DNA of 64,000 nucleotides from an uncultured delta proteobacterium (GCA_963802225.1 CAWDHZ010000014.1:4877-68876); one strand, 5' to 3'. Numbered from the stretch's first letter, positions 6,368-26,336 are shown. Program-made: numbers and translations. Notes: generated from the sequence alone by a model not told the origin.

Positions 6368-6564
6368 CCTCGTGCTCTCGGATCTGAACTCTGTTTCTCG
6401 CCCCGCACTCCCGGGAACCCCCTTCATCGAAGCCGGATGAATGCTGAAAAGACACCGCTTTTTGACGTGCGGAGTATAGGATGCACATTCGGGCGTGTCA
6501 ACGGGACAATTGCCGCGAGCAGCCGCCTCATCTGGCCGTGTCTTGGGGGTCGAGTGTTGATTCT

Positions 6565-7497
6565 TTACCGTTTCATATCATTGAGCAGGTTTGAAGGCGA
6601 ATACTGATCGGAAAGAATTTTTGCATTCACATCCCAGTCTCGGTCAGTCGAAAACAAAGGCAACAGGAAATCCGCTTCAACATGGAACGGTCGAAGAGCA
6701 GCTTCGAGCATCGCGGCGTTCCTTCTAATCGCTTCTTTCAGGGGCAATGCTCCCCTTTTAATGAGAATGACCCTGTTTTGATACTTTAGATTGAGGAATG
6801 TTCCGAAGACGGATTCATACGTCGCGGATTCGTGATCATAAAGCCGGCTCGTCGAAAATGTATTTGCTACCAAAACGCCTTCCGGATTCATAATCTGCTT
6901 TACTTCGTCTAGAAATTCCCTCGTCAACAGATGTTCGGGTATGTATTGATGATCAAAGGCATCCAGCATGATCAGATCGTATATCACTCCCTTCTTTATG
7001 GCGCGCTTCACAAACACGCGCCCGTCTTCCTCAATGACCTTCATCCTGGAGTTCGTCTGAAAATTAAAGTGTTTTTTTGCCACACGCACGACGGCGGGGT
7101 CTATTTCCACCGAATCAATTTCCGAATTGGGCAGAATCTTCGAAAGGGCAGACGGCAATGTGCCCCCGCCCAGGCCGATAATCAGTATCTTGTCCGGCGC
7201 GGGCAGAAGGTACAGCGCGGCCATCATCATCTTCGTATACGGAATGACCATGCTGTCGGGATCCTGAAGCGAGATGCAGGTCTGCCTGTTGATTGACTTG
7301 CTGTTTTTTGAGAACCGCATGCAGCGCTCACCGTCTTTTTCATAGACCGTGATGTTCCTGTACAAAGAACGTTCTGTATGAAGAACCGTGTCGTTCCTGG
7401 TAAAAAGAGGGTAAAGGGCATCCATTCCCAATGTAAGCAAGGGCGCCAAAATCCCCAGGGCTAACAGGAGCAGCACGATTTTATTGGTTCTCGGCAT
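6565..7497 (-). CDS. Spermidine-synthase-like methyltransferase-fold protein (C-terminal module of a fused membrane/SpeE-type protein)
   Basis: ILIIGLGGGTLPS...IDSVEIDPAVV...DLIMLDAFD is an aminopropyltransferase/SAM-MTase motif set, preceded by an N-terminal TM helix. ATG at 7497 (TTG 7524 in the track). AT-rich codon usage. Confidence 0.7.
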   Translation of the reverse strand: MPRTNKIVLLLLALGILAPLLTLGMDALYPLFTRNDTVLHTERSLYRNITVYEKDGERCMRFSKNSKSINRQTCISLQDPDSMVIPYTKMMMAALYLLPAPDKILIIGLGGGTLPSALSKILPNSEIDSVEIDPAVVRVAKKHFNFQTNSRMKVIEEDGRVFVKRAIKKGVIYDLIMLDAFDHQYIPEHLLTREFLDEVKQIMNPEGVLVANTFSTSRLYDHESATYESVFGTFLNLKYQNRVILIKRGALPLKEAIRRNAAMLEAALRPFHVEADFLLPLFSTDRDWDVNAKILSDQYSPSNLLNDMKR

Positions 7498-8083
7498 TTC
7501 TCCCCCCGGCGATAAACGCGACAAAACTCATCAGCATGGATATGCCTATCATGATCCAGACGATCAGGTTTACTTCCAGATAGAGAACCAGATAAAACGA
7601 CGTCAGAAGGGTCCCTGCTGCACTGCCGAACGTCGACACGAAGTAAAGAATTCCGGCACAGTTGCCGCTTTGATCGAGGTCTTTCACGAGCAGGCGGACA
7701 GCATAGGGAGAAACCATCCCCGATATCAGTGTGGGAACAAAGAAAAAGATTGTCGCAGACAGGAGTGAACCGTATCTGGGGTCTTGAATGACGGAGAATA
7801 TATTTTCAAAAGCGGTCTCTCCGATTAATGCAACCGGCGACGTCGACAAAGCCGCGCTGATCAAAATTACCGAAAGTTTTCTCAGGGAAGGTTGCTGAAC
7901 CGAAAGCCGGCCGCCAATAAGATAGCCGATCGATAAAGCCAGCATGAATACGGTGATAATGCCGCCCCAGACGTAAATGCTGTTACCGAAATGGGGCGCG
8001 AGAATTCGCCCGCTGAGCAACTCGACTGCCATGACAAAGAAACCGGACCAACCGGCTATGATAAAAACCAGATATCTGCTCAT
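7481..8083 (-). CDS. Polytopic membrane protein (N-terminal module of a fused membrane/spermidine-synthase-type protein)
   Basis: ORF 7481..8215(-) trimmed to ATG 8083. MSRYLVFIIAGWSGFFVMAVELLSGRILAPHFGNSIYVWGGIIT... has about 6 hydrophobic helices. It overlaps the next ORF by 17 nt across a C6/G6 run (7502-7507). Confidence 0.6.
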   Translation of the reverse strand: MSRYLVFIIAGWSGFFVMAVELLSGRILAPHFGNSIYVWGGIITVFMLALSIGYLIGGRLSVQQPSLRKLSVILISAALSTSPVALIGETAFENIFSVIQDPRYGSLLSATIFFFVPTLISGMVSPYAVRLLVKDLDQSGNCAGILYFVSTFGSAAGTLLTSFYLVLYLEVNLIVWIMIGISMLMSFVAFIAGGRNAENQ

Positions 8084-8348
8084 AAAGGCCCCTTTAGTCT
8101 GGAGCGTATTCCGGCATGTGATACTTGACTCGCACGGCTTCTGTATCATCGCAAGCTCGATTCGTGAATATGTCGTGATCCGGACAAAAGCGCATTGACC
8201 GTGACTTCTTCTCAAGCTGCTACATATACACTGGTCAGTTGCCTATGGAAATGCAATATATCCAAGAGCTCGAACTGCACAGGCATGGTTTGAAAGATTT
8301 TTCACCGGATTTTTTCAGCAGGGGCTTGTTTCAGATACGCACTTGAAA

Positions 8349-8384
8349 TGATGGATAAAAATGGAGCGGGCGATGGGATTCGAA
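8349..8384 (-). repeat. Direct repeat A: 13-nt flank plus 23 nt identical to the 3' end (T-loop to CCA) of the tRNA-Gly at 35835-35909
   Basis: tgatggataaaaa-tggagcgggcgatgggattcgaa. The last 23 nt are identical to 35835-35857. No cloverleaf can be completed. Confidence 0.65.
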
Positions 8385-8635
8385 AACAACCCCAAGCCCG
8401 CGTGGTGCTGGGTTCAGGGCTACTGCCGGATTTTTTCCGGATTTCGAATTTAACTACGCCTTTCTTCTTTCTCCCCGAATCGGACGCCCGGCTCAACACC
8501 CTGAGACATTTATTCATTCTGAATAGAGGGAAGGAAGTTTAAAAAAGTGTCCATTCATGAAATATTACTACTCAAAATACAACATATATGAACTTTCTGT
8601 TGATTATGGTTTAAATATGTGTCTAATAGAGAAGC

Positions 8636-9412
8636 ATGACTACTGATAACAGAACAAAAATAAACAAATTAATAAGCCAATGGCCTCGGGGCACGGTGGC
8701 CTCAACGGCTTACTTGAAAGAACTAGGATTATCTCAGGAGCTCCTTGCCTGGTACAAACGGAGCGGCTGGCTAGAATCCTACGGCCGCGGCGCTTATCTC
8801 CTTGCCGGGGACAAGGTCGAGTGGACCGGCGCCCTGTACGCCCTCCAAAAACATTTGAAGATGTCTGTCCATACAGGCGGCAAGACGGCCCTGGAGCTGA
8901 AGGGCTACGGTCATTTTGTTCCGATGAGGCAAAAGATTTTTCTCTATGGCGAAAGGGGCCTGACGCTGCCCGCCTGGTTTAAAAAGTCCATGCAGCACAG
9001 GGATTTCGTATACGTGATGACCAACCTGTTTCCCCTTGGGTATGAAGACGGTCTGACCGAGTTCAAATCGGGCGAGTTTGCCGTAATCGTTTCGGCGCCG
9101 GAAAGGGCCGCCATGGAAATGCTTCACCTGGTCCCGAAAGTCGTTGGGTTTGAGCAAGCGTCGCTGATCATGGAGAATCTGGCGGGTTTGCGCCCCGAGC
9201 TTGTTCAGAAGCTTTTGGAGACCTGCCGGTTCGTCAAAGTAAAGCGGCTCTTTCTCTACTTTGCGGAGAAATATTCTCATCCATGGTTTTCCCGACTGGA
9301 TTTGTCAAGACTAGACTTGGGAAAGGGAAAGAGGCTGATCGTGCCGCATGGAATGCTGGACAAAAAATATCAGATCACCGTTCCCAGACAGGAAAGAGAA
9401 TCGACGGAGTGA
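8636..9412 (+). CDS. AbiEi-family antitoxin-like transcriptional regulator (type IV TA system)
   Basis: 258 aa. N-terminal wHTH-like ...YLKELGLSQELLAWYKRSGWLESYGRGAYLL... and C-terminal ...VKVKRLFLYFAEKY... resemble AbiEi_3-type antitoxins. Its stop overlaps the GTG of an AbiEii-like start (GTGA). Confidence 0.65.
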   Translation: MTTDNRTKINKLISQWPRGTVASTAYLKELGLSQELLAWYKRSGWLESYGRGAYLLAGDKVEWTGALYALQKHLKMSVHTGGKTALELKGYGHFVPMRQKIFLYGERGLTLPAWFKKSMQHRDFVYVMTNLFPLGYEDGLTEFKSGEFAVIVSAPERAAMEMLHLVPKVVGFEQASLIMENLAGLRPELVQKLLETCRFVKVKRLFLYFAEKYSHPWFSRLDLSRLDLGKGKRLIVPHGMLDKKYQITVPRQERESTE

Positions 9413-9537
9413 AGGACTCGATCTTCTATAAGCAGGCGGAACTCGTCTTGCGGATCCTGCCGGACATTCTGGTCGAGGAGATCTTCGCACTGAAAGGAGG
9501 AACGGCAATCAATTTCTTTTTCAGGGACCTGCCCCGC
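9409..9537 (+). pseudogene. 5' fragment (about 43 codons) of an AbiEii/AbiGii nucleotidyltransferase toxin gene
   Basis: VKDSIFYKQAELVLRILPDILVEEIFALKGGTAINFFFRDLPR matches the conserved AbiEii N-terminus (..ALKGGTA.N.F.RD.PR then LSVDIDL). After 9537 the frame continues as unrelated GC-rich sequence to 9699. Confidence 0.55.
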
Positions 9538-9695
9538 CACGACCCCATCGATCCCGACGTGATGAAGCGCCACCCGCCTGAGTGCATGACGAAGCGCAAC
9601 TTCCTCCGCACGATGCGCCTGCTTCTCGCCGCGGGCGCCATCCCGCTTTTGATTCCGGAGAGGGTGAAGGGGGTGCGGCACGCCCGGCAGAAAGG

Positions 9696-10583
9696 ATGAG
9701 ACGCAGTCAGATGAATATACCAAGCCGGCTTCACCAAGAGACTCGCAGGGTCTGGGCGGTACTGTGTCTCGCCGTGAAAAATTTTTTCCGGATTAACGGG
9801 GTGCAGTGGGCGGGAGCGTTTGCCTTCAATGCGTTCTTCTCGCTGTTTCCCTTGATGATCCTGCTCGTCACGATTGCCTCTTTCTTTGTTGACCGGGACC
9901 AGGCCGGGAAAGAGGTCATTGCCTTCATGGAAAACTACGTCCCGATCAGCGGCAAGATGCAAACTCATATTTTTGAAACCATCACCGGCGTGATCAAAGC
10001 GCGCGGGCAGGCGGGTGTGGTCGCATTTCTCATCCTGCTGTGGGTCGTCCTCCAATGTTTTATCACCCTCATCTGCGCGATCAACCACGCCTGGGGTACC
10101 GCGGTGAACAACTGGTGGCGGCTGCCGTTGAAAAGCCTGGTGCTGCTCGGCATCACGGCGGGTGCGTTCCTTCTGGGCATGGCGGTGCCGGTTATGGCAA
10201 AAATGGCGAAGGATTGGCTCTTTCCAGTGAATGATTTCAGTTCCTGGGTCTATGCCATGGGGAGCTTTTTCATTCCCTTGCTGGTGGTCTTCCTCAGCCT
10301 CAGCCTTTTTTACTGGCTGGCCCCGCGCCGGCCCACGCGCTTTGCCGAAGTCTGGGTTTCCGCCCTTTGCGCCACGGCTCTCCTGCTGGCGACCGAAAGT
10401 CTGTTCGTGATGTACCTCAAGAACTTCGCTACGTTAAACGCGGTCTATGGGGCGTTCGGCGGGATCATGGCATTGCTGCTGTGGATTTACCTTTCCGGGT
10501 GCATTTTCATCTTCGGCGCCTGCCTGTGCGCCGCTCAGGCCGAAGGGCGTTCAGCGCAGGCGAAAACAATCAAGGCGCGCTAA
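9696..10583 (+). CDS. YihY/BrkB-family inner-membrane protein
   Basis: ORF 9582..10583 trimmed to ATG 9696, with GAAAGG upstream. ...FFRINGVQWAGAFAFNAFFSLFPLMILLVTI... plus six TM segments is typical of the YihY family. Confidence 0.75.
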   Translation: MRRSQMNIPSRLHQETRRVWAVLCLAVKNFFRINGVQWAGAFAFNAFFSLFPLMILLVTIASFFVDRDQAGKEVIAFMENYVPISGKMQTHIFETITGVIKARGQAGVVAFLILLWVVLQCFITLICAINHAWGTAVNNWWRLPLKSLVLLGITAGAFLLGMAVPVMAKMAKDWLFPVNDFSSWVYAMGSFFIPLLVVFLSLSLFYWLAPRRPTRFAEVWVSALCATALLLATESLFVMYLKNFATLNAVYGAFGGIMALLLWIYLSGCIFIFGACLCAAQAEGRSAQAKTIKAR

Positions 10584-10601
10584 AAAAAGGAGCACTGAAC
10601 C

Positions 10602-10712
10602 ATGAACAAAAAAACGCTTTCCCCGGAACTACTCCACAAGATGGGTGCCTGCTGGCGCGCAGCCGACGATCTGTCCGTCGGCCAGTTGAACTGGGAGCTG
10701 ACCCATGAATAA
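10602..10712 (+). pseudogene. 5' stub (36 codons) of a phosphoketolase (xfp-type) gene
   Basis: Below the ORF-track size cut-off. AAGGAG RBS, then MNKKTLSPELLHKMGACWRAADDLSVGQLNWELTHE*. Phosphoketolases start ..LSPELL.KMDAYWRAANYLSVGQIYL... The TAA at 10710-10712 overlaps the next gene start (10705). Confidence 0.55.
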
Positions 10713-12051
10713 GTTCACGCAACTCTGGAGCAATCTGCGGTCGAGCTTTTGGTTTATGCCTTCATTGATTGTCGTGTTCAGCATTGCCTTCGCGGTAGCG
10801 TTGATCGAAGCAGACTCCGCCGGGAGCGACCGATGGCTGGCCCAGTGGCCGCGCCTGTTCGGGGCCGGGGCGGAAGGCGCGCGCGGGATGATGTCCACGA
10901 TTGCCGGTTCGATGATGTCCGTGGTGGGCGTCGCGTTCTCCATGATCCTGGTGGTGCTGGCGCTGGCTTCGAGCCAATACACCTCGCGCATCCTGCGGAA
11001 CTTCATGCGCAGTCGCGTCACGCAGGTCGTGCTTGGGATCTTCGCCGGCATTTTCACGTATTGCCTGATCGTGTTACGCACCATTCGCAGCGGCGACGAG
11101 GGCGCATTTGTTCCAAGCCTGGCGGTGTTCTTCGGCTTCGCGCTGGCACTCGGAGGTGTTGGCGCCCTCATGTTCTTCATTCATCATATCGCCTCTTCGA
11201 TCCAGGCTTCCAGCATCATCGCCTCGGTCGCTCAGGAAACCATCGCGGCCGTCGACCGGCTGTTTCCGGAAAAACTCGGACAAGGGCCGGGCGAAGACGA
11301 TGATGACCAGACGCTGCGCCCCCTATCCGAGCGGACTTGGCGCGCCGTCCCGGCCAGGGAGAGCGGCTATATCCAGAGCGTCAATAACGCGGCGCTCCTA
11401 AGCTTGGCGCGGGACAGGAAAACCATCGTGAGGATGGAGCACGGCATTGGCGAGTTCGTTGTCCAGAACACCACTCTGGCCTCACTCGCCCTGGAAGACC
11501 CGCCGGATCAAGAGACGATTGACGCCCTGCAGGCGACTTTCAGCATCAACCGCTACCGCACGGTGGAGCAGGACGCGGCCTTCGGAATCAGGCAGATCGT
11601 GGATGTGGCGTTGAAAGCACTCTCCCCCGGCATCAACGACGTCACGACAGCCGTGACGTGCGTGGATTATCTGACGGCGATTCTGGCGCGGCTGGCGCCT
11701 CGGAAAATTCCCTCATCGCACCGTTACGAGGAGGGGGTACTGCGAGTGATCGCCGAAGGCCCGAGCTTTGAAAGCATGCTGGCTGAATCGTTCGACCAGA
11801 TTCGAAACAACGCCAAAGGCAATGTCACCATCATATCGCGGATGCTCGACGCCTTTCAAACCCTTGCCGGCTTGACGGCCAGCCCACAACGCCGGCGGGC
11901 GCTTCGCGAGCAAGTGCAATGGATCGCCGAGTTGACCGAGCGTACCGTCGAGTCTGCTCATGACCGTGCGAGGATCGACACGCGGCTGGAGCGCCTGCGC
12001 GAAACGCTCGAAGCCGAGCCTGCGCGGTGTCCGGTGGAGGAGAAGGAATAG
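10705..12051 (+). CDS. DUF2254-family membrane protein
   Basis: 448 aa. N-terminal MNKFTQLWSNLRSSFWFMPSLIVVFSIAFAVALIEAD plus four TM helices and a large soluble C-terminal domain, as in the DUF2254 family. Confidence 0.65.
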   Translation: MNKFTQLWSNLRSSFWFMPSLIVVFSIAFAVALIEADSAGSDRWLAQWPRLFGAGAEGARGMMSTIAGSMMSVVGVAFSMILVVLALASSQYTSRILRNFMRSRVTQVVLGIFAGIFTYCLIVLRTIRSGDEGAFVPSLAVFFGFALALGGVGALMFFIHHIASSIQASSIIASVAQETIAAVDRLFPEKLGQGPGEDDDDQTLRPLSERTWRAVPARESGYIQSVNNAALLSLARDRKTIVRMEHGIGEFVVQNTTLASLALEDPPDQETIDALQATFSINRYRTVEQDAAFGIRQIVDVALKALSPGINDVTTAVTCVDYLTAILARLAPRKIPSSHRYEEGVLRVIAEGPSFESMLAESFDQIRNNAKGNVTIISRMLDAFQTLAGLTASPQRRRALREQVQWIAELTERTVESAHDRARIDTRLERLRETLEAEPARCPVEEKE

Positions 12052-12227
12052 TCTTGCAAAATCGAGAGCAAGCCCTGCATCGACAAGCGCCGCCAAGACA
12101 AACCGGAGATTCGAAACAGGAAATGGAGCAACCACAACTGAATGCGCACGGGCTTATCGATACCGTTTTGGGCCTGAAGACAGGGACTCCGCAAGCTGCG
12201 GGGTCCCTGTCCGTTCCAAGGATATTG

Positions 12228-12268
12228 TGATGGATAAAAAAATGGAGCGGGCGATGGGAATCGAACCC
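12228..12268 (-). repeat. Direct repeat B: same flank plus 26 nt (1 mismatch) of the tRNA-Gly 3' end
   Basis: tgatggataaaaaaa-tggagcgggcgatgggaatcgaaccc. It has the same orientation as repeat A and as the complete tRNA. The sequence beyond it does not fold as a tRNA. Confidence 0.65.
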
Positions 12269-12435
12269 TCCCTCCACCCTTGTGGGCAAGGGTTTCATGG
12301 CTTTATCTGACCGCTATCTGACCAGTTCACATCTGCAGTAATCAACTGAAAATCATAAGTCACAAGTGGATGAATGAGTGATGGACATGACGAGGGTTTG
12401 ATCCTCTTGAGAAATCGCCGTACCTTTTCAGATTT

Positions 12436-12630
12436 TCATTTTCTTTTCATCATATAAACGACAGCCAAAATAGCGAGAAACGCGATAATGATCACAACAA
12501 ACCATCCGGAGTTCATTCCCCACCCCCAACTATCACCCATCATGCCGCCACCTTGACTGCTGCCCATCTGGGCATAGCTGAAAGAAGTCAAAAAAGATAA
12601 TATTAACGCTGCCAGAAGTAATATTTTCAT
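12436..12630 (-). CDS. Small exported Gly/Met/Trp-rich membrane-anchored protein
   Basis: 64 aa: signal peptide (MKILLLAALILSFLTSFSYA), QMGSSQGGGMMGDSWGWGMNSGW, a TM helix, then KRK. It is the last gene of the copper operon. Confidence 0.5.
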   Translation of the reverse strand: MKILLLAALILSFLTSFSYAQMGSSQGGGMMGDSWGWGMNSGWFVVIIIAFLAILAVVYMMKRK

Positions 12631-12746
12631 CTTTCTTCCTCCTTAGGTGGATTTCACTTGGGCCCTATGGATGTCTCACAGCTACGGGTCATTGCACTTT
12701 CATTGAATCGTTATATTGGAAGCATGAGAGGCATCTCATTCTTCCT

Positions 12747-14975
12747 TCAGAGTTGTATGCTCTTCAATCTGAGCGAGTTTCCTATAACGGACACCGAACT
12801 GAAGCTCATGGCGGCGGCAGCGATCATGGGGCTGAGCAGGATGCCCATCGTGGGGTAAAGAACCCCGGCTGCTATGGGAACACCCAGCGAATTGTATACA
12901 AAGGCAAAAAAGAGGTTCTGCTTGATGTTGCGCATCGTTGCCCTGCTCAACTTCCTCGCCCGCACGATCCCCCGAAGATCGCCTTTCACCAGGGTCACTC
13001 CCGCACTCTGCATCGCCACATCCGTCCCGGTCCCCATCGCCACACCGACATGCGCCTGAGCGAGGGCGGGGGCGTCATTGATTCCGTCCCCTGCCATTGC
13101 CACAATCCGTCCCTCACTCTGCAGCCGTTTAACCATTACTGCCTTCTGGTCGGGCAGGACCTCCGCGATCACTTCGTCGATGCCAAGCTTTTTCCCGACG
13201 GCTTCAGCAGTCGTCTTGCTGTCCCCGGTGATCATAACGACCCGGATCCCTTCCTGATGAAGCTTTTCGATCGCCTCGGCTGTCGTTGATTTGATCGGGT
13301 CTGCCACGGCGAGGAGCCCTGCAACCTTTCCGTCCACAGCAACAAACATGGCGGTCTGCCCCTCCTTGCGCATGGACTCTGCCTTGTCAGGGAGATCGCC
13401 CAATGCAATGCCGAGATCTTCAATGAGCCTGCGGTTCCCGAGGGCGAGCTTCCGTCCGTCGATCATACCCGTTACCCCGCGTCCGGTCAGCGATTCAAAG
13501 GACTCAACTTTTGAAGGCGAGATACCCTTTTCTTTTGCACCGGCAACGATCGCTTCAGCCAGAGGGTGCTCGCTTCCCATCTCGATGCTTGCAGCGAGGT
13601 GAAGCAGTGTCTTTTCATCAAATTCTGCCGCGGGGACCACATTGACCAGCTTCGGCCTTCCCTCTGTGAGCGTGCCGGTTTTATCCGTGACAAGAGTATC
13701 GACGGTCTTCATCACCTCGATAGCCTCGGCATTCTTAAAGAGCACGCCTCCCGTAGCCCCTTTGCCCATAGCCACCATGATCGACATCGGCGTTGCCAGG
13801 CCGAGGGCACAGGGGCAGGCGATGATCAGCACCGCAACGGCATTGACAAGAGCGTATGCCATCCGCGGCTCAGGCCCGATCCATGCCCAGACCACGAAAG
13901 TGAGAACCGCAATACCGACTATGGTCGGGACAAAATATCCGGCAACGCTATCCGCCAATTTCTGGATTGGAGCGCGGCTCCGCTGGGCCTCTGCAACCAT
14001 GTGGACGATCTGCGCCAGAAGAGTCTCGGCTCCAACCTTCTCCGCTTTCATGATCAATGTGCCTGTCCCGTTCACGGTGGCGCCGATTACCCGGTCGCCA
14101 ACCTGCTTCGACACGGGAATGGGTTCCCCGGTGATCATGGATTCATCCACCGCGCTTGATCCCCCGGTCACCGTGCCATCGACGGGCACCTTTTCGCCGG
14201 GCCTGACCCTAAGGAGATCTCCTGCCTTGATCTGGTCCATGGGGACGTCCTCTTCGTTGCCATCTCTAAGCCTTCGCGCTGTCTTCGGGGCAAGTCCCAG
14301 CAGGGCCTTTATGGCAGCACCGGTCCGTGACCGCGCCCTCAATTCAAGCACCTGACCGAGGAGTACGAGCGTAGTGATGACCGCTGCCGCCTCAAAATAC
14401 ATTCCCACTTCACCGCTCTCACCACGGAAAGTCTTTGGGAAAAGGCCTGGAAACAGAGCAGCCACAATGCTGTATAGATACGAAAGGCCAACGCCGAGCC
14501 CGATCAGGGTGAACATATTGGGGTTCCAGCTGACCACCGACTGCCAGCCCCTGACAAAGAAGGGCCAGGCTCCCCAGAGGACCACCGGTGTGGCGAGGAT
14601 AAGTTCCATCCACTTCAGAAACTCAGCGGAGAGGAGGCGGTCGATGAAAGAAAGTCCCGGAATGTAGTGGCGCATGGCGATAAGGACCAAAGGGACCGCC
14701 AGCACGGCACTGAACCAGAACCGCCGAGTCATGGAGATGAGTTCGGGATTTTCCTCATCCTCTGCCGTGATTGTTTTCGGCTCGAGGGCCATCCCGCAGA
14801 TCGGACAGCTGCCCGGAGCATTGCGGACGATCTCCGGATGCATCGGGCAGGTCCATTCCGTTTTGGTGACGGTGGCAGAAGGAGCAAAAGGTTCAAGGGC
14901 CATCCCGCATTTGGGACAAGCTCCGGGTTCGGCCTCTCTGATTTCAGGGTGCATGGAACAGGTGTACATATCCAT
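12747..14975 (-). CDS. copA: Copper-translocating P1B-type ATPase
   Basis: Two N-terminal C-x-MHPE...CPxCGM metal-binding modules, the CPC motif ([13 protein letters not shown]), DKTGTLT, and GDGINDAP. The start may be the ATG at 14969 (better GGAG spacing). Confidence 0.9.
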
Positions 14976-15067
14976 CTCCAGCCTTTTCTGCGAAAAATTC
15001 AGTGTAACTCAGCCGGTTCTCATACCGATGGATGTCGGATACACCAGGAAAATGGAGTGCCGGCAGG

Positions 15068-15409
15068 CTACCTCGCTTCGACAATGTAGTTTTTGCCCCC
15101 ATACTGGTTCCGGCAGCGGGTCGAGCAGTGTGGTTCATCGGACACGATGCCGTCGACGACGAACCGGTACTCGTATTTCCCGGGCGAGAGGTAGAAAGTG
15201 ACCTCCCAGTTGCCGTCCGTCTCTTTCTTCAAAGGTCTGGTGGAAGGGTCCCAGTTGTTGAATGTGCCTGCCACTGCTTTCTCGCGGGCATTTGGTGCGC
15301 GGATGTTGAAGGTCACTCGTTTCTTGCCAAGATTACTTGCCATAAATCGCCTCTTGGTAGAGTCCAGTTGAGACTGCTCTCTCTTCCTCTCAATCAACGA
15401 ACATTCCAT
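15068..15409 (-). CDS. CBM48/AMPK-beta glycogen-binding-domain-like small protein
   Basis: VTFNIRAPNAREKAVAGTFNNWDPSTRPLKKETDGNWEVTFYLSPGKYEYRFVVDG is the classical CBM48/GBD pattern. An alternative start lies at 15343. Confidence 0.6.
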   Translation of the reverse strand: MECSLIERKREQSQLDSTKRRFMASNLGKKRVTFNIRAPNAREKAVAGTFNNWDPSTRPLKKETDGNWEVTFYLSPGKYEYRFVVDGIVSDEPHCSTRCRNQYGGKNYIVEAR

Positions 15410-15415
15410 GATGAT

Positions 15416-15829
15416 CTACTTCGTCTCCGTGGGGAAACCGGCTTCCAACCACTCATTCCACCCACCCTTCAGGGCGTAGACCTTCTTGAACCCCAGCCTG
15501 ATCATATCCTGTGCCACCCAGGCACTGGTTGCTTCGCTGTGTCAGGCACAGTAAAGGACGATCGTCTTGTCCTTTGGATACTTATCCGCCCAGGATTTTA
15601 CTTCCTGCTTGGGGTCTTCCCGGACGGCGCCCTTGATCATCATGGTACTTTTAGCCAGATCGACGGGTTGACGGACATCGATGATGATTACATCCGGCTT
15701 GCCCAGCATCGACTTGAGCTCTTCCTTGCTCATCCTCGGCACCTGTGCCGAGGCGTCGCTTCCGGCGAGCAGAAACACTGCCCCCATTATCAAAGCCATC
15801 ACGAAGACTGCGATCACCTTGAATCTCAT
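15416..15829 (-). CDS. Exported rhodanese-domain protein with in-frame TGA (candidate selenocysteine, C-A-U active-site loop); alternatively a nonsense pseudogene
   Basis: The track ORF 15542..15829 stops at TGA after ...KTIVLYCA. The next 41 codons stay in frame (HSEATSAWVAQDMIRLGFKKVYALKGGWNEWLEAGFPTETK, TAG at 15416-15418) and complete the rhodanese fold. There is an N-terminal signal peptide, a SECIS-like hairpin downstream, and selA in the same window. Confidence 0.6.
15508..15528 (-). promoter_or_regulatory. SECIS-like hairpin 13 nt downstream of the in-frame UGA
   Basis: The mRNA reads UGA-CACAGCGAAGCAA-CCAGUGCC-UGGGU-GGCACAGG. That is an 8-bp stem with one A.A mismatch and a 5-nt G-rich loop that starts 21 nt after the UGA. 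Confidence 0.5.
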
Positions 15830-15934
15830 CGTCTGATACCTCCTTTTTCGACTTTATTAACCGCCACAGAAAATCGTTATGTTTGCGCAATGCGTCAAGA
15901 TTCGTTTGAACGGAGCCGAATGCGCACTTCGAGA

Positions 15935-16327
15935 TCATCTCGCATCGATGGTAAATTTCGCGGATACCGTCTTTCCTTTATGGGTAATCTTAATGGTGAG
16001 ATTCCAGGAACCGGACATTGGAAAGTCGAGCATTGAATGGTAGGTTTTCCCTTGAAGCTGGGCTTCGGCATTGTAGTTCATTGCAGGCATTCCGGACATG
16101 GCCGGCATGGCGTAATTTGCGATAACCTTCGCATCCGTCACATAATTGCCGCTTGCATCCTTGACGGTTATTTCCAGATCGTTCTTTCCTTTAACCGCGC
16201 TTTTATCCATGGCAAGCTCGACAGAATAGTCCCCTGCCCTTTTCTTCACTTCATAGGCCTTTGCGAAAACAACCCCGGCTGACAACAGCACGATCAAGGT
16301 AACTGCCACGAATCTTTTCATAGTCAT
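15935..16327 (-). CDS. YtkA/FixH-like exported protein with a Met-rich loop
   Basis: Signal peptide and a beta-rich 130-aa protein with YAMPAMSGMPAMNY. It resembles YtkA-like domains found next to heavy-metal genes. Confidence 0.5.
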   Translation of the reverse strand: MTMKRFVAVTLIVLLSAGVVFAKAYEVKKRAGDYSVELAMDKSAVKGKNDLEITVKDASGNYVTDAKVIANYAMPAMSGMPAMNYNAEAQLQGKTYHSMLDFPMSGSWNLTIKITHKGKTVSAKFTIDAR

Positions 16328-16367
16328 TTGCCTCCATCCATTTTCGATATGGAGTATTTATGTTTTT

Positions 16368-17297
16368 CTACTGTGCGGAACTCATACGGCCTGTCTGTTT
16401 GTTGATGAGGACCTTGTCAACAAGGGCGTTGCTCTTCGTTACGACTTCCGCCTCGAAGGCATCTCCCTTATCCTTGATCTTTCCTGGTTTCAGGTTGGGA
16501 TTCCGGCTGGACTTGACGTAATCCTCCATCATAGCCTTGGCATCTTTCATTTCCAGAGGTTTCCCCGGTGCAGCATATGACTGTCCGTAACCGTAGCCTC
16601 GGCCGCCCATCATGCCGCCACCCATGCCGGAGCCCTGCCCAGAACCCATCATGCCTCCGCCCATCATGCCGGGACCCATGCCATATCCATAGCCCCCTCC
16701 CTTCATCATCCCGGGGCCCATGGTGCCGCCCATTTTGAGTGCATGGTCGAACATGACAAGGTGATGGCGGGTCTGCAGAAGGATGTTGTTGAGTATGCCG
16801 GCCGAATCACGGTCCGCGGCGTTCTTCACGAGCCACTCGTAGCGAGGGATCAGATCCTGCTCCATCTTTACACACAGCTCGAAGGCCTCGGTGATCGTTT
16901 TCGTCACAGCGACCGCTGCCGTCTTGCCCTCGGCTGGCAAGCCGTAGGCGGCAAAGAGCCGTTCAATGGCCCTCACATGATCCTCCTCCTGGGGAATGAC
17001 CATGTGATAGGGCATATAGGCGTTGAATTTCTCCGCGTCGGCTGCGTATTGGGCGTAAGAAAGACGTTCCAGGGCCAAGACGTCCCGGAGCTTCTGTGTC
17101 CATTCCTGGCTCTTTGGAGCCGGGAGCTTGTCCGGCACGTCCGGGGCAATCGGGTAGCCCATCATCCCCCCGCCCATACCGTAGCCGGAACCACTGCCGC
17201 CCATCATGCCTCCGCCCATGCCGTGCTGGGCCATAACGGGCATGGCAACCAGAAGCGACAGCAACACGGTAAAAATCCATAATGTTCTCTTTTTCAT
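16368..17297 (-). CDS. Exported ferritin-like (DUF2202-type) protein flanked by Met/Gly-rich repeats
   Basis: Signal peptide, then HGMGGGMMGGSGSGYGMGGGMMGY at the N-terminus and GMGPGMMGGGMMGSGQGSGMGGGMMGG near the C-terminus. The core ERLSYAQYAADAEKF...EEDHVRAIERL resembles DUF2202. Confidence 0.6.
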   Translation of the reverse strand: MKKRTLWIFTVLLSLLVAMPVMAQHGMGGGMMGGSGSGYGMGGGMMGYPIAPDVPDKLPAPKSQEWTQKLRDVLALERLSYAQYAADAEKFNAYMPYHMVIPQEEDHVRAIERLFAAYGLPAEGKTAAVAVTKTITEAFELCVKMEQDLIPRYEWLVKNAADRDSAGILNNILLQTRHHLVMFDHALKMGGTMGPGMMKGGGYGYGMGPGMMGGGMMGSGQGSGMGGGMMGGRGYGYGQSYAAPGKPLEMKDAKAMMEDYVKSSRNPNLKPGKIKDKGDAFEAEVVTKSNALVDKVLINKQTGRMSSAQ

Positions 17298-17357
17298 GAT
17301 GTCCTCCTTGCATGCATTTCGTTTTTCCCGTTTAATCCGGTCGTTGCCTTCCGGAGT

Positions 17358-17720
17358 CTATTCAAGCAGCCACGCCTTTGCTGCGGAGATATCGTGATTC
17401 CCGAAAATTTTGACGGGGCACGGAATGAACAGCGAGAAGAATTGGACGGCCCTCGATATCCACTCCGCGTCGGTGACAACCGCTATCTTTTCGAATGCGG
17501 TCAGGTGGCGTATGCCAAGCTTGGCATCATCGAACATGGCTTCGGCCGTGAAGCCTGAGATATCACGGCTCAATTGATAGAGTACGCGGATCTTCCCATG
17601 TCTTTTCAAGCTGCTCTCCACAGCCGGGATCAGGACGTCGTCGTAATCCTTCCCGGAAATCTGCCCGCTTGCCCTGACCGCCACGACGTTATCCGGCATG
17701 TCCTGTATGATTTCCAACAT
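17358..17720 (-). CDS. STAS/SpoIIAA-like (DUF3478-type) small protein
   Basis: 120 aa: MLEIIQDMPDNVVAVRASGQISGKDYDDVLIPAVE...KIAVVTDAEWI. This is the typical pattern of SpoIIAA-like 'STAS/SEC14' single-domain proteins. Confidence 0.55.
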   Translation of the reverse strand: MLEIIQDMPDNVVAVRASGQISGKDYDDVLIPAVESSLKRHGKIRVLYQLSRDISGFTAEAMFDDAKLGIRHLTAFEKIAVVTDAEWISRAVQFFSLFIPCPVKIFGNHDISAAKAWLLE

Positions 17721-17803
17721 GAAAGTGTCCTTTCCACAGGTGAAAAGATTATTAAGACAACTGGCGATTCAATGAGCCCGAGAAGGAAGCAGCCCGAAAG
17801 AAG

Positions 17804-18112
17804 TCACTCGGAGAGATCCTGCTTCAACCGATTGTATTCCTCTTTTGTGATCTCGCCCTTTGCATAACGCTTTTTCAATATCTCCAGCGGTGTCTCGCTG
17901 ACGCTTCCCCGCCTCTGGGTCTGCACGATAAAATAGATTGCAATAGCGACAACAATCACAAGGATCAGCCACATGAACCATCCTCCATATCCATAGTGCA
18001 TCATCGGCCAGCCGCTTCCCGGCCCATGCATGGGTCCAGATCGATCGTCTCCTGCGCAGGAAAACAGAAAAGCGACAGAGAACAAAATGGTACGGTTCAT
18101 TAATGTGTTCAT
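17804..18112 (-). CDS. SHOCT-domain membrane lipoprotein with a Gly/Met/Trp-rich segment
   Basis: Lipobox-like LFSC, then GPMHGPGSGWPMMHYGYGGW, a TM helix, and a C-terminal PLEILKKRYAKGEITKEEYNRLKQDL (SHOCT motif). AGGAGG RBS. Confidence 0.7.
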   Translation of the reverse strand: MNTLMNRTILFSVAFLFSCAGDDRSGPMHGPGSGWPMMHYGYGGWFMWLILVIVVAIAIYFIVQTQRRGSVSETPLEILKKRYAKGEITKEEYNRLKQDLSE

Positions 18113-21810: not shown

Positions 21811-22172
21811 CGACATGGGGTGCCCTTCTGCGAGAGCAACCGATAAATAGGGATAGTGAAAACATCGTTCATTCTATGCTCTTTTTAGTAAAGGGTTCAG
21901 ACTTTTTTCTAGAGGAAGCATCAAGTCCGGTCGGGCCGGCGGCTTTTGCACTCGCCCCATCCATCTTCGGTAATCGATCATGAAAATGAGATGGAATATG
22001 CCATCTTGGAATTGGAAAACAATTAGGTTAGAATAGGACCATGTTTCCACAGCTCCATCCATTGGACGCTTCTTTCCCTTTCACCTCGTCCGACACCCTG
22101 AGTGAGTCGAATAACCGCGGGTGAAGACCCGGCCCATTTCAAGGCAACAAACGGCTGATCAAGGAGGTCGTG

Positions 22173-23660
22173 ATGGATGCTCGATCCCTGGGGGGACTCG
22201 TCTCCCGTATCGCGAAAGGCGCAAAGGTCGTCATCGTCTCGAACAGGGAGCCTTGCATGCACGAGCGAGACGTGGGCGGCATCCGCGTCGTCCGCCCGGC
22301 AAGCGGGATGGTGGCCGCCCTGGAGCCCATCGTCCGGGCGACAGGCGGAACCTGGGTTGCCCACGGGTCAGGCTCTGCCGACCGCCTCGTCACCGACGAA
22401 AAGGGGAGGATCGCTCTGCCCCCCGAAGACCCCCGGTACACACTCAGGCGGGTCTGGCTGACCAGGAAGGAAGAGGAGGGCTACTACTACAACCTTTCCA
22501 ACAGGGCCCTGTGGCCCCTCTGTCACATTGTCTACACAAGACCCCGTTTCTCCCGGACCGACTGGGAAACGTACAGGGAAGTGAACAAACGCTTCTGTGA
22601 TGCGGTCCTCGAGGAGGTCGAGGGAGGGCCCGCCATCGTCTTTATCCAGGACTACCACCTCGCCCTGCTGTCCCGGATGCTCAGGAACGCAAGGCCGGAT
22701 CTCCTGCTCGTCCAGTTCTGGCACATCCCCTGGCCCAACCGAGAGGCCTTCCGGATCTTCCCTTGGGGGGAGGAGCTTCTCGACGGACTCCTTGGAAACG
22801 ACATTATGGGCTTCCACATCCAGTATCACTGCAGCAATTTCATGAACACGGTGGACCGGGGAATCGAGGCGAAGGTCGATTACGAGCATTACCGGATCTT
22901 CCGCGGCGGCAGACCCACGCATGTCCGGGCCTTCCCGATCAGCGTCGACTTCAATCAGATCGGCCAGGACGTGACGTCACGGCGGGTCGAGGATAAACGG
23001 GAGAGCTTTATCAAGGAGCTCGGCGAAGGAATCCTGGAGACGAAGATCTATGTCGGGGCGGACCGCATCGACTATACCAAGGGCATCCCGGAGCGGATGA
23101 AGGGATTCGATCTCATGCTGAAGGATCATCCGGAACTCCGGGGCAAGGTCACCCTTCTTCAGCTGGCGGCACCCAGCAGGACACACTTAGAGGCGTACCG
23201 GGATATCAACGAAGAACTGGACGAGCTTGTCGACGAGATCAACTGGCGCCACCAGACCGAGGACTGGACGCCCATCCGGTTCCTGAGGGCCCATCACGAT
23301 TATTATGCTGTCCTGGCCTCTTACAGGTTGGCCAATGTGGTCATGGTCACCTCCCTTCACGACGGCATGAACCTCGTTGCCAAGGAATTCATCTCCGCCA
23401 GGACCGACGGCGACGGGGCTCTTTTGCTCTCCCAGTACACGGGGGCGGCCCGGGAGCTTCCCGATGCCATCCTCGTGAACCCTTACGACCTCGACGAGCT
23501 TGCCGATGCGATGCACGAGGCCTTCCTCATGCCGGAGAAGGAGCGGAAGAAACGGATGAAGCGGATGCGGGCGCAGGTCCAGAAGCACACGGTCTATGAT
23601 TGGGGCGCGAAAATCTTCGAAGAGTTGGAAGACATTCTTCCCGGGAAGGAGGTCACGTAG
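22173..23660 (+). CDS. otsA: Trehalose-6-phosphate synthase (GT20)
   Basis: VIVSNREP...GGMVAALEP...YYYNLSNRALWPLCH...TSLHDGMNLVAKEF. ATG 22173 lies 5 nt after AAGGAGG (the track starts at GTG 22170). Confidence 0.9.
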   Translation: MDARSLGGLVSRIAKGAKVVIVSNREPCMHERDVGGIRVVRPASGMVAALEPIVRATGGTWVAHGSGSADRLVTDEKGRIALPPEDPRYTLRRVWLTRKEEEGYYYNLSNRALWPLCHIVYTRPRFSRTDWETYREVNKRFCDAVLEEVEGGPAIVFIQDYHLALLSRMLRNARPDLLLVQFWHIPWPNREAFRIFPWGEELLDGLLGNDIMGFHIQYHCSNFMNTVDRGIEAKVDYEHYRIFRGGRPTHVRAFPISVDFNQIGQDVTSRRVEDKRESFIKELGEGILETKIYVGADRIDYTKGIPERMKGFDLMLKDHPELRGKVTLLQLAAPSRTHLEAYRDINEELDELVDEINWRHQTEDWTPIRFLRAHHDYYAVLASYRLANVVMVTSLHDGMNLVAKEFISARTDGDGALLLSQYTGAARELPDAILVNPYDLDELADAMHEAFLMPEKERKKRMKRMRAQVQKHTVYDWGAKIFEELEDILPGKEVT

Positions 23661-24433
23661 TGCCGTCAACGGAGATTCCCCTGCAGCGGCTATGGGTATT
23701 CGATTTCGACGGAACCCTGTCCCCCCTGGTGCCCGATCGGGATACCGCAGCGCTTCTTCCCGAAGGCAGGGAGTTGCTGTCGGCACTTGTGAGGCTGCCC
23801 CGGCAGGGCGTGGCCATACTCTCGAGCAGGCTGCTCGACGATCTGATCCCGAGAGTGGACCTGGACGGGCTCTACCTGGGAGGCGGCAGCGGCGCCGAGT
23901 GGCTTTTGCCAAACGGGGAGCGCAGGATCGCGGAAAACAAAACGCAGCGGCTGGAGAGTGCCAGAAATGCCGTCATGCCGGAACTTGCAACGCTGTCGGG
24001 TATCCAGGGTGTCGATCTGGAGGACAAAAAGTGGTCTGTCGCCATTCATGTAAGACACGTGTCGCCCGATGACCGGAAACGGGTATTCGATTTTCTTTCG
24101 GCGCTGAGCCGCACCACCGGCATTCGTATGCTCCGGGGCCCGGAGGTTTTTGAAATCCAGCTTCTGCCGGAGATCGACAAGCTTTTCGGCGTCAGGGTCC
24201 TTTGCGGGATGCTCAATTTTGTGCCTGCGCAAGGTTCACTGGTGTATGCCGGTGACGATGAAAACGATGCAATCGTCATGGACTGGGTGCTCCGGAATGG
24301 GGGAGTTGCCCTGACCGTCGGGCGAGTTCCACTCGTCCCAGGGGCACTGGTTCTTGAACACCCGGCAGCCCTGGTGTCGGAAGTCAGCAGGCTGGCCGGT
24401 CTGCGAGCAACGAGACAGGAGGTGGCAACATGA
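23660..24433 (+). CDS. otsB: Trehalose-6-phosphate phosphatase (HAD-IIB)
   Basis: LWVFDFDGTLSPLV...YAGDDENDA. I prefer the GTG at 23660 (GGAGG 7 nt upstream, 1-nt overlap with the otsA TAG) over the track ATG 23600. Confidence 0.8.
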   Translation: MPSTEIPLQRLWVFDFDGTLSPLVPDRDTAALLPEGRELLSALVRLPRQGVAILSSRLLDDLIPRVDLDGLYLGGGSGAEWLLPNGERRIAENKTQRLESARNAVMPELATLSGIQGVDLEDKKWSVAIHVRHVSPDDRKRVFDFLSALSRTTGIRMLRGPEVFEIQLLPEIDKLFGVRVLCGMLNFVPAQGSLVYAGDDENDAIVMDWVLRNGGVALTVGRVPLVPGALVLEHPAALVSEVSRLAGLRATRQEVAT

Positions 24434-25101
24434 ATCCATTTGAAATCAAGGACTGTGCGCTTTTGACGCGGATGAGCGGCTTGCCGCCGGCCTTCAACCT
24501 TCGCGAATTGCGGGACCGCATCCTGTCGTGCAGTTGCGATGTCCTGTACCACCACTACTGCGAGACCCTGCTGGTCCCCTCTTTCGATTATCCGGATTAC
24601 CGAAACGATTTTGCCATCTGGGCGAAATGGAGGCTCGGCGATGAGACCCTGGCCGAGCGCCTCGGGATGATCGATCCCTATATTTTTGCATCCATGGAGG
24701 AGCTCCGAGCCGTTACCCTGGAGATCATCGAGGACCGCCTCAGCGAGGTCAGCATGATTCCCTGGGCCCGGCCGGGGCATGAGTTTTATCTCATGCAGGC
24801 GATCACCGTGTCCTTCGACACGGGGGAGAGGGTCGCGCACCCGGACGAACTTGCCGCGGCCGTCGACCGGATGACCGGGGGCAGCATCTACGTCCATATC
24901 CTGGAGGCCAGAAGGCGGAAACCGATCGGTCTGGATGACTTTTCCGCATGGCTCAGCGGGTTGGAGGGAAACTGGGAGCATTATATCACGGCCATACGGG
25001 CCATTGATTTCACGTTTCACTCGCTGAGCGAGATCCGTCGGGAACTGGTGGAAGCCCTCACCGATGCCCGTGATCGCAAACCGAAGGAGAAGAGCCGATG
25101 A
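24430..25101 (+). CDS. Conserved-looking hypothetical protein, translationally coupled between otsB and the TreT-like gene
   Basis: 223 aa with ATGA overlaps at both ends (24430-24433 and 25098-25101). No catalytic motif that I recognise. Confidence 0.5.
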   Translation: MNPFEIKDCALLTRMSGLPPAFNLRELRDRILSCSCDVLYHHYCETLLVPSFDYPDYRNDFAIWAKWRLGDETLAERLGMIDPYIFASMEELRAVTLEIIEDRLSEVSMIPWARPGHEFYLMQAITVSFDTGERVAHPDELAAAVDRMTGGSIYVHILEARRRKPIGLDDFSAWLSGLEGNWEHYITAIRAIDFTFHSLSEIRRELVEALTDARDRKPKEKSR

Positions 25102-26336
25102 ATCAATTTCTTGAAGCCTATACCGACATCGTGGGTTCCCCTGCCATCCGGCAGTTGCATCAGCTGGCGGAAAAACTTCGGGGACTCGAGGTCGTCCACG
25201 TCAACTCCACGTCGGAGGGAGGGGGTGTGGCGGAAATCCTGGCCTGGATGACACCGCTGATGTGCGATCTGGGTCTCGATGCGAAATGGAAGGTGATCCG
25301 CGGCACGCCGGGATTTTTTGCCATGACCAAGTCTATTCACAACGGGCTGCAGGGAAAGAGCGTCGCCCTGACGAAGAAAGACTGGGATACCTATTTCGAC
25401 GTCAATGCAGAGAACCTCGCCGAGTTGAAGGGGCCGCTCGAGAATGCCGACATCGTCGTCATCCATGATCCCCAGCCGGCGCCTCTTCTGCAGCTCTGTC
25501 CGGAGCGGAAGGGCAAGTGGATCTGGCGGGCTCACATCGACGTGAGCCGCCCGGACCGGCATGTGTGGAAGTCCCTGCGCTCCTACGTGGAAAAATACGA
25601 TGCCAGCATTTTCTCCATGTGCCAGTATGCCCAGGCTCTGCCCCACCCCCAGTTCATCGTCGCCCCGAGCATCGATCCCCTGAGCGACAAGAACATCGAC
25701 CTGGGTCCGGCAGAGATCGAAAAGGTCAGGGCCCAGTTCCGCCTGGACCCCGACCGCCCGCTTCTCGTGCAGATTTCACGGTTCGACCGCTTCAAGGACC
25801 CTGTCGGTGTCATCGAGGCCTACCGCCTGATCCGGAAGGTGCTGCCCGTGCAGCTTGTCCTGGCCGGCGGCGGGGCATCGGACGACCCGGAAGGGAATGA
25901 GATCCTCGACGAGGTGAGGGAGGCCGCCGGCAATGATCCCGACGTTCACATCCTTCTTCTCCCGCCGGATGCGCACCGGACGATCAACGCCCTTCAGCGG
26001 CTGGCCGACATCATCATCCAGAAATCGACCCGGGAGGGCTTCGGCCTCACCGTCACGGAAGGGCTCTGGAAAGGCAAGCCCGTGATTGGCGGCGACGTGG
26101 GAGGCATCAAGCTTCAGGTGACCAACCACTACACCGGCTATCTCGTCAATACACCGGAGGGCGCGGCTCACCGGATCCGTTTTCTTCTTCACCACCGGGA
26201 GCAGATGCAGACGATGGGGAAGACGGCGCGGGAATTCGTCCGGGAGAATTTCCTGCTGACCCGCCATCTCCGCGAATACCTGACTCTTTTCACCTGGCTT
26301 CTCAGCGGAGAGGGCAGGCACACGATCAGGGTTTGA
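25098..26336 (+). CDS. treT: Trehalose glycosyltransferring synthase TreT-like glycosyltransferase (GT4)
   Basis: VVHVNSTSEGGGVAEIL...FFAMTKSIHNGLQG...HDPQPAPL...SIDPLSDKN...ISRFDRFKDP...STREGFGLTVTEGLWKGKPVIGGDVGGIKLQV tracks archaeal/thermophile TreT along the whole length, as I recall it. Confidence 0.75.
   Translation: MNQFLEAYTDIVGSPAIRQLHQLAEKLRGLEVVHVNSTSEGGGVAEILAWMTPLMCDLGLDAKWKVIRGTPGFFAMTKSIHNGLQGKSVALTKKDWDTYFDVNAENLAELKGPLENADIVVIHDPQPAPLLQLCPERKGKWIWRAHIDVSRPDRHVWKSLRSYVEKYDASIFSMCQYAQALPHPQFIVAPSIDPLSDKNIDLGPAEIEKVRAQFRLDPDRPLLVQISRFDRFKDPVGVIEAYRLIRKVLPVQLVLAGGGASDDPEGNEILDEVREAAGNDPDVHILLLPPDAHRTINALQRLADIIIQKSTREGFGLTVTEGLWKGKPVIGGDVGGIKLQVTNHYTGYLVNTPEGAAHRIRFLLHHREQMQTMGKTAREFVRENFLLTRHLREYLTLFTWLLSGEGRHTIRV

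Follow-up and report, generated by a model that had tools for sequence, protein, structure and literature searches.

What left two fragments of a glycine tRNA gene downstream of the gene itself, in the genome of an uncultured deltaproteobacterium? The fragments lie in a stretch of DNA of 64,000 nucleotides (nt) (GCA_963802225.1 CAWDHZ010000014.1:4877-68876; hereafter, the window), which also holds the complete tRNA-Gly(CCC) gene. An earlier note on the window took the fragments for one pair of repeats bracketing a 3.9-kilobase (kb) mosaic of gene stubs, and read them as relic attachment (att) sites of decayed integrative elements. Our analysis indicates that the fragments are most probably displaced 3' ends of tRNA-Gly(CCC), that is, relic distal att sites of successive site-specific insertions at the T loop of this one tRNA gene. 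The resulting array is a tandem of decayed, integrase-less tRNA-gene islands, which are of a long-established kind and are found here as a new example in an uncultured Syntrophales lineage.

The intact tRNA-Gly(CCC), the target gene, is located on the minus strand at 35835-35909 (Rfam RF00005, 70.6 bits) and is the only tRNA gene that ARAGORN called in the window. The 17-mer TGGAGCGGGCGATGGGA occurs there in exactly three copies, all on the plus strand (8362, 12243, and 35835), while 0.04 copies are expected by chance and none of 100 dinucleotide-preserving shuffles reached three. A repeat search of the window independently recovered the same three-member family, composed of the tRNA 3' end and the direct repeats DR1 and DR2. 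The plus-strand text of all three copies is the reverse complement of the tRNA 3' end, and this orientation is common to all of them; DR1 and DR2 are therefore on the same strand as the tRNA-Gly(CCC) gene, and both are on its 3' (downstream) side. Read in the tRNA sense, DR2 (8362-8384, minus strand; from 8384 to 8362) comprises 23 nt identical to the tRNA, begins with the first base of the T loop (TTCGAAT), and ends with CCA. DR1 (12243-12268, minus strand; from 12268 to 12243) starts with GGG before the T loop, and its 26 nt match the tRNA down to CCA except for one T-loop base (TTCGATT). The repeat strings that the earlier note had quoted at 8349-8384 and 12228-12268 are thus present in the window, and their ends do equal the T-loop-to-CCA part of the tRNA in the same orientation, over 23 nt in DR2 and over 26 nt less one base in DR1. 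They are not a generic dispersed repeat, since the window has three copies and one of them is the tRNA itself. Beyond the tRNA-derived part, DR1 and DR2 have the flank TGATGGATAAAAA in common, of which exact copies were found in the window at those two sites only; beside DR2, the shared flank is TTTTTATCCATCA at 8349-8361. Neither repeat could be completed to a cloverleaf, as had been stated before, and neither was called as a tRNA by ARAGORN or Rfam. A separate possibility, that the DR1 region is a decayed tRNA with a CCC anticodon loop, was ruled out by the loop length, U33, and the negative ARAGORN and Rfam results.

To see the locus in related bacteria, we used hisD, the gene beside the tRNA. 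Its close homologues are numerous (84-97% identity), and the named ones belong to metagenome-assembled genomes of Syntrophales or "Deltaproteobacteria". The hisD neighbourhoods of nine homologous proteins gave twelve loci, including those designated L081-L085, L166, L167, and L249-L252. In all loci fetched, tRNA-Gly(CCC) directly follows hisD, and the hisD side is collinear with the window at 83-96% nucleotide identity. Scans of genome and metagenome contigs with hisD yielded, among the matches listed, relatives of at most 59-62% identity without the tRNA beside hisD. Two of the loci proved to be empty sites. In L085 (approximately 90% nucleotide identity), the tRNA ends at 11431, and 11457-15748 corresponds to window 6562-2286 at 91% identity. 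L082 has the same junction, with 11457-11592 corresponding to window 6562-6442; it reads tRNA, TTTTTATCTAAATTCCCCCCGATAAA, ATCAACACTCGACCCC and onward, the last part being the block that ends at window 6562. In both cases, only approximately 25 nt lie between the tRNA and the sequence ending at window 6562. The conserved flank, which starts with an intergenic block (6442-6562) followed by the PGA_cap gene, is accordingly approximately 25 nt from the tRNA 3' end in these relatives, and window 6563-35834 (29.3 kb) is extra DNA between the tRNA and the ancestral flank. The array is thus much larger than the 3.9 kb proposed earlier, and its anchor is the true tRNA at 35.8 kb. DR1 closes a 23.6-kb segment extending as far as the true tRNA, and the segment closed by DR2 is 3.9 kb long.

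Starting from the tRNA, the array consists of arm X', the cargo of segment A, DR1, arm Y, the cargo of segment B, DR2, arm X, segment C, and the flank from 6562. Segment A as a whole extends from the tRNA to DR1 (12269-35834, 23.6 kb), with arm X' (35741-35834, minus strand) as its tRNA-proximal end and its cargo at 12269-35740, in which Pfam and NCBIfam found no integrase. Segment B (8385-12227, 3.9 kb; cargo at 8385-12179, from Pfam and open reading frames (ORFs)) is the mosaic described earlier, and its distal end is DR2. Segment C with arm X (6563-8361) is the outermost of the stacked segments, and its gene part lies at 6563-8271 on the minus strand. Segments A and B each carry their own tRNA fragment, and none of the three segments has an integrase.

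Arm Y (12180-12242, minus strand), which starts with TTTTTTTATCCATCA, is a former downstream flank of the tRNA. It is 75-81% identical to the sequence directly 3' of the tRNA in L081, L083, L084, and L166, and its alignment with the L084 flank has a z-score of 15.9. The arm contains a hairpin at 12180-12210 (-29.9 kcal/mol, z = -4.4) whose U-run after the stem has been lost, and the L084 counterpart is a terminator with A-run, stem, and U-run (-40.2 kcal/mol, z = -8.1). A simple terminator scan called neither the hairpin on the DR1 side nor its L084 counterpart; folding shows the hairpin clearly. Because arm Y is a tRNA-following sequence with a terminator stem, DR1 and arm Y together appear to be a former tRNA 3' end that was displaced when segment A arrived. 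Segment B furthermore matches the L084 islet at both ends, by arm Y at the proximal end and by the abiEi region at the distal end. The flank "tgatggataaaaa" in the earlier note is indeed repeated, and its identity can now be corrected: the old sequence downstream of the tRNA begins with it. All eight relatives whose flank opens with TTTTTATC, among them L081-L085, L166, and L167, have TTTTTATC(C/T) after the tRNA, and the flank at this place in L249-L252 differs from it (TTTATTTTCC).

Arm X (8272-8361, minus strand) would have followed the tRNA before segment B was inserted; the empty sites in L082 and L085 lack it. Approximately 60 nt of arms X and X' (about 35741-35800 in X') are alike at approximately 75% identity, with a local alignment score of 33 against a shuffle mean of 16.2 (standard deviation 2.6), and none of 500 shuffles was as good. 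The shared part includes a tandem GGATTTTT in X', downstream of the true tRNA, with plus-strand copies at 35767 and 35778 (35767-35785). Neither X nor X' folded as RNA better than shuffles, and the two arms would fit protein-binding DNA better than an RNA element. No significant likeness was found between arm X' and the proximal flank of L249, and blastn and tblastx searches downstream of arm X' detected nothing left of the gene in segment C.

Several short motifs accompany these junctions. CCGGATTTTT is found at 8305-8314 in arm X and at 8426-8435, 48 nt from DR2 on one side and 42 nt on the other, and a tandem GGTCAGATA lies beside DR1 (12304-12323), one copy of it being present 41 nt after the tRNA in L249 (11538-11546). 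We note that GGATTTTT, CCGGATTTTT, and GGTCAGATA could be putative binding sites of a recombinase or an accessory protein. A further candidate, the motif GCCnnGAAACCC together with tandem repeats common to the element-side arms of DR1, DR2, and L167, was discarded after non-significant shuffle tests.

The alignment with relatives, which the earlier note had recommended in search of empty sites, also revealed that the other loci are occupied by different cargo. L081 and L083 carry intact AbiEii/AbiEi pairs at the tRNA, and L084 carries a DEAD/ResIII helicase in addition to AbiEii/AbiEi. L166 carries an AAA_14/DUF4143 ATPase and has kept, of AbiE, only the abiEi upstream region. In L167, a 9.8-kb islet (GntR, acetyl-CoA hydrolase, TRAP transporter, enoyl-CoA hydratase, and rhodaneses) is closed by a 33-nt repeat identical to DR1, and in L249-L252 a 6.5-kb islet is closed by a degenerate repeat with three mismatches. 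The relatives therefore do not have the gene order of the window, and the alternative that they would show the same order without repeats fails. L084 (20825-20847) and L085 (15754-15776) have a further 23-nt tRNA-Gly fragment after the PGA_cap-racemase-Ddl-FGase block, followed in L085 by approximately 2.6 kb lacking in the window; no repeat was found at the counterpart in the window, around 2284. Because of this fragment, the "conserved" block itself looks like an older islet.

L081, L083, L084, and L166 have a common distal junction despite their differing cargo, where the block resumes at window 6515-6518 and not at 6562. This suggests cargo replacement inside a common islet frame from which the distal repeat was deleted. 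A comparison of the distal junction sequence of the L083 and L084 islets with the window gave noise only. In L081, rho, prfA, aroA, and PGA_cap are split into two or three ORFs in comparison with the window and L083; this probably reflects indel errors of a long-read assembly, and the gene calls of this sample set need care.

The exact start points of the repeats bear on how they were made. Among the repeats of the window and its relatives, the starts fall at two positions only. Those of the first class (DR2 and the distal repeats of L084 and L085) start at the first T-loop base, each preceded by TGTT (TGTT|TTCGA), and those of the second class (DR1 and the distal repeats of L167 and L249-L252) start 3 nt earlier. 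A regenerated tRNA gene and a displaced fragment are known to mark the ends of islands, and the anticodon loop, the T loop, and the T/acceptor junction are the crossover subsites (PMC4383910, the latter after Williams 2002, NAR 30:866, cited there); the boundaries of DR1 and DR2 are at one of these recognised subsites, the T loop. We also scanned the viral contigs of IMG/VR with the 23-mer tRNA end and obtained at least 80 loci. Among the matches listed, many are fragments and not full tRNAs, and several start at the same GGG and T-loop boundary as DR1. In two of the viral loci, the fragment has a tyrosine integrase gene (Pfam Phage_integrase, E values of about 1e-19 to 1e-20) as its neighbour, 73 nt away in L198 and 46 nt away in L235, and in L204 a weak integrase match lies 232 nt from the fragment. 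A candidate integrase would be expected to act on a site that includes GGGTTCGAWTCCCATCGCCCGCTCCA.

The T-loop alleles provide a further indication. TTCGAAT is found in the window tRNA, DR2, L081, L083, and L166, and TTCGATT in DR1, L082, L084, L085, L167, and L249-L252. The tRNA alleles of L082, L085, and L167, as well as the distal repeat of L167, are 100% identical to DR1 over 31-33 nt. DR1 thus keeps a T-loop allele that the present tRNA gene no longer has, and a replacement of the gene's 3' part would be expected to leave just such a difference between DR1 (TTCGATT) and the present tRNA (TTCGAAT). Taken with the T-loop boundaries, the empty site, the other occupants, and the integrase-linked viral fragments, the relic att interpretation in the earlier note holds well.

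On this basis, the history of the locus may be described as follows. Each insertion would supply a new tRNA 3' end, repairing the gene, and would push the previous 3' end and whatever followed it further downstream, so that the tRNA part from the T loop onward would presumably have come with the most recently inserted segment. In the likely order of events, arm X with segment C would have followed the tRNA before segment B was inserted, and segment A would have arrived last. By analogy with the viral loci and known islands, a tyrosine integrase may have made the junctions, and the segments would then have lost it, as proposed earlier. Later erosion and remodelling would have truncated abiEii, left the stubs, spliced in the copper module of segment A, and removed the far repeat of segment C. 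With no recombinase gene left, the array has most likely become fixed, provided that it is not within reach of an integrase encoded elsewhere.

Several observations weigh against this history. The 27 main ORFs called in 6.5-36 kb had no Pfam match to domains of integrases, excisionases, transposases, phages, or conjugation systems, NCBIfam likewise detected none of these in ten of the ORFs (including the six without a Pfam match), and six-frame translations of five intergenic regions, including those beside DR1, DR2, and the tRNA, revealed no such domain and no integrase remnant. Precomputed Pfam matches likewise gave no integrase in any of 13 related loci. Segment C has no tRNA repeat at its far end, the element-side arms beside DR1, DR2, and the L167 repeat have no significant likeness, and the right half of segment A (22-35.8 kb) has a host-like composition and housekeeping-like genes. 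Moreover, the differences among strains could also have arisen by homologous exchange via the conserved flanks, with no recent integrase. Elsewhere in the window, ten large ORFs (eight of them in 47-64 kb) contained no integrase either. Because no integrase was found in the array or in the 13 related loci, we infer the site-specific mechanism from the anatomy of the junctions and from analogy.

The lack of an integrase might be explained differently if the segments are still-mobile cassettes similar to cis-mobilizable elements (CIMEs) or integron cassettes, each with its own att arms and tRNA fragment, that are inserted, excised, or shuffled at tRNA-Gly(CCC) by an integrase encoded elsewhere in the genome or on a visiting element. 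All five repeat-bounded segments (A, B, the L167 islet, the L249-L252 islet, and the L084/L085 PGA_cap block) are without integrase, and strains with 88-97% identity in hisD differ in what occupies the site. There is a significant likeness between the proximal arms of A and C, which include the tandem GGATTTTT, and CCGGATTTTT is found on both sides of DR2, as arm-type sites would be. However, no candidate integrase was found, and no segment showed an excised-circle junction or a second insertion site. The arms on the element side are not conserved, and the arm motifs were not found beside this tRNA end in viral contigs: no copy of GGATTTTT turned up in the scan at the appropriate distance from the tRNA end, and the one match for the tandem GGTCAGATA had no tRNA fragment nearby and was taken as chance. 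The decay of the cargo into stubs and a split gene also fits fixation better than active movement, and we regard such mobile cassettes as rather unlikely. In the extended form of this idea, the whole interval from tRNA-Gly(CCC) to Iso_dh/rimP/nusA would be an integrase-less cassette array, in which segments ending in T-loop-to-CCA fragments are captured, stacked, and exchanged by a recombinase encoded elsewhere; this we consider unlikely. If true, the array would be a tRNA-anchored analogue of the integron, and GGATTTTT and CCGGATTTTT would be its putative binding sites.

The repeats might also have formed with no site-specific recombination at all, by illegitimate recombination or segmental duplication of the tRNA end and its flank, or by homologous exchange of variant intervals. 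No integrase is present, approximately 60 nt of the flank beyond the tRNA (X and X') is duplicated as well, and the conserved flanks on both sides would permit allelic replacement. Such processes do not account for independent repeats that start at the same two T-loop positions in different strains, for the integrase-linked viral fragments that share the T-loop boundary, or for the orientation and side of all repeats, which are those predicted by tRNA-gene integration; we judge this explanation very unlikely. Homologous exchange explains the spread of variants and not the origin of the displaced fragments, and via the conserved flanks it probably does spread variants among the strains. Finally, the window is part of a 148,920-bp contig of an uncultured organism, and the related contigs are metagenome assemblies, some with many split genes, which raises the question of whether the array is a chimera joined through short tRNA-derived repeats. 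The repeats are only 23-41 nt long and differ in length, A-run, and T-loop base, which makes them poor substrates for misjoining; both outer flanks are collinear with several independent assemblies, and both ends of segment B match L084. An assembly artefact is therefore extremely unlikely, and successive insertion at the tRNA T loop remains the preferred explanation.

The cargo of segment B provides direct evidence of the decay. Its abiEi gene (8636-9412, plus strand) encodes a full-length AbiEi (Pfam AbiEi_3_N and AbiEi_3), and the end of this gene is overlapped by an abiEii stub (9409-9538, plus strand; Pfam E = 0.0021, profile positions 4-32 of 238). L084 15308-16368 matches window 9538-8475 at 89.6% identity, and the match stops inside abiEii at 9538, where an intact gene for a 369-amino-acid AbiEii continues in L084 past the end of the homology. 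Since the homology breaks at 9538 within a gene that is intact in L084, an internal deletion or replacement is demonstrated directly, in line with the internal deletions suggested earlier. With abiEii cut after 43 codons, segment B does not have the full-length toxin gene of an AbiE module and thus cannot work as a toxin-antitoxin pair. The remaining genes are brkB/yihY (within 9582-10583, plus strand; Pfam), a possible N-terminal stub of a phosphoketolase gene (10602-10712, plus strand), and a DUF2254 gene (10705-12051, plus strand; Pfam). The gene content listed in the earlier note is therefore supported by Pfam for AbiEi, the AbiEii stub, BrkB/YihY, and DUF2254; the phosphoketolase assignment is doubtful, as this 36-codon ORF had no phosphoketolase match in Pfam and a single PDB match over residues 12-36 with E = 1.4.

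Segment C contains a fused MFS/spermidine-synthase gene (NCBIfam NF037959), represented by two overlapping minus-strand ORFs at 7481-8215 and 6565-7524 that match model positions 4-185 and 250-391. It looks like a single gene split by a frameshift and lies in the stretch of lowest GC content in the window (0.48). The GC content is 0.56 in segment B, 0.53 in segment A from 12.3 to 22 kb, 0.60 in segment A from 22 to 35.8 kb, and 0.62 in the syntenic core. The tetranucleotide distances of segment C, segment B, and the left half of segment A exceed those of core chunks of equal size, and that of segment C is the largest of all segments.

Segment A, whose cargo is absent from the hisD loci of the relatives, carries on the DR1 side a copper-resistance module (about 12359-18061) that includes CopA with HMBD domains, a small membrane peptide, a Met/Gly-rich repeat protein (16368-17297), and SpoIIAA-like and SHOCT proteins. 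This module is 88-91% identical to that in a further locus, L168 (6586-12609), where its neighbours are different, and the homology ends at 12359, 91 nt before DR1. Because the copper module stands in another context in L168, segment A is itself a mosaic. Homologues of CopA with 80-96% identity are present in bins named Nitrospirae, Aminicenantes, and Deltaproteobacteria, and the module has apparently been transferred widely. The other cargo of segment A comprises CLC, MarR, OtsA/OtsB/DUF5752/TreT, GpgS-like glycosyltransferases, GalT, MgtE, GlgA, and Usp. Within it, we observed a compatible-solute cluster at 22170-29826 (OtsA, OtsB, DUF5752, a TreT-like trehalose synthase, a HAD phosphatase, and two glucosyl-3-phosphoglycerate-synthase-like glycosyltransferases), which is followed by a small RelA/SpoT-domain synthetase (29967-30743) and then by GalT, MgtE, GlgA, and Usp. 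The cluster and the genes after it form a stress and osmoadaptation set inside the inserted segment. For GlgA, a single homologue reaches 91% identity, in another gene context (GlgA-Usp-GntR and others), and the next is at 77%, in contrast to the dozens of hisD homologues at 88-97%. Segment A is therefore accessory in its 22-35.8 kb part as well, which probably came from a related Syntrophales donor.

Structures of this type have counterparts in well-studied bacteria. The CIMEs and accretion arrays of the ICESt1/ICESt3 family of integrative and conjugative elements (ICEs) in Streptococcus thermophilus consist of att-flanked DNA without recombination and transfer genes, placed in tandem with other segments at the attachment site, and are thought to arise by deletion of the mobility module and site-specific accretion. 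They are located at the 3' end of the protein-coding gene fda, and their mobilisation by a resident ICE has been demonstrated experimentally. Segments B (DR1 to DR2) and A (tRNA to DR1) resemble CIMEs in being att-flanked, with no mobility genes found. Unlike in CIMEs, the target here is the T loop of a tRNA, and a helper element is not known. Segment B can likewise be compared with the AbiE modules, which are type IV toxin-antitoxin systems for abortive infection: its full AbiEi and the overlapping start of abiEii are arranged as in the intact pairs of L084, L083, and L081, from which it differs in its toxin gene cut after 43 codons. The tRNA-Gly attP (phage attachment) sites of prophages and islands in the IMG/VR loci L198, L235, and L204 share with the window the same 26-nt core GGGTTCGATTCCCATCGCCCGCTCCA, with identity from the same base as in DR1. 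Unlike the window, they have an integrase 46-232 nt away, and their flanks bear no relation to the arms in the window, whose motifs were not found there. A further parallel is with the tRNA islands of the Islander collection (Hudson, Lau and Williams 2015, PMC4383910), which the array resembles in the regenerated tRNA, the displaced 3' fragment in the same orientation, the crossover at the T loop/T stem, the empty site in relatives, and the stacking at one tRNA. In contrast to those islands, no segment here has an integrase, so that none would pass the Islander filter; part of the cargo is degraded, and a fragment is missing from the outermost segment. In an Islander tandem array, each member has its own fragment and its own integrase, whereas here segment C has no fragment and none of the segments has an integrase.

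Insertion of foreign DNA at a tRNA gene is a common route by which bacteria acquire genes. Displaced tRNA fragments as marks of island ends represent a long-established mechanism, and in this respect the general interest of the array is modest; what is unusual is that an integrase is missing from every one of the five repeat-bounded segments observed in the lineage. What the locus provides is a base-level map of how an uncultured syntrophic deltaproteobacterium of the Syntrophales gained approximately 29 kb of accessory genes at one tRNA gene. The functions gained include copper export, a chloride channel, trehalose and glucosylglycerate-type solutes, glycogen synthase, magnesium transport, and a now defunct AbiE module. 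Across the lineage, tRNA-Gly(CCC) is a strain-variable hotspot, and recognizing it as such helps in reading the accessory gene content of metagenome-assembled genomes and in separating core from acquired metabolism.

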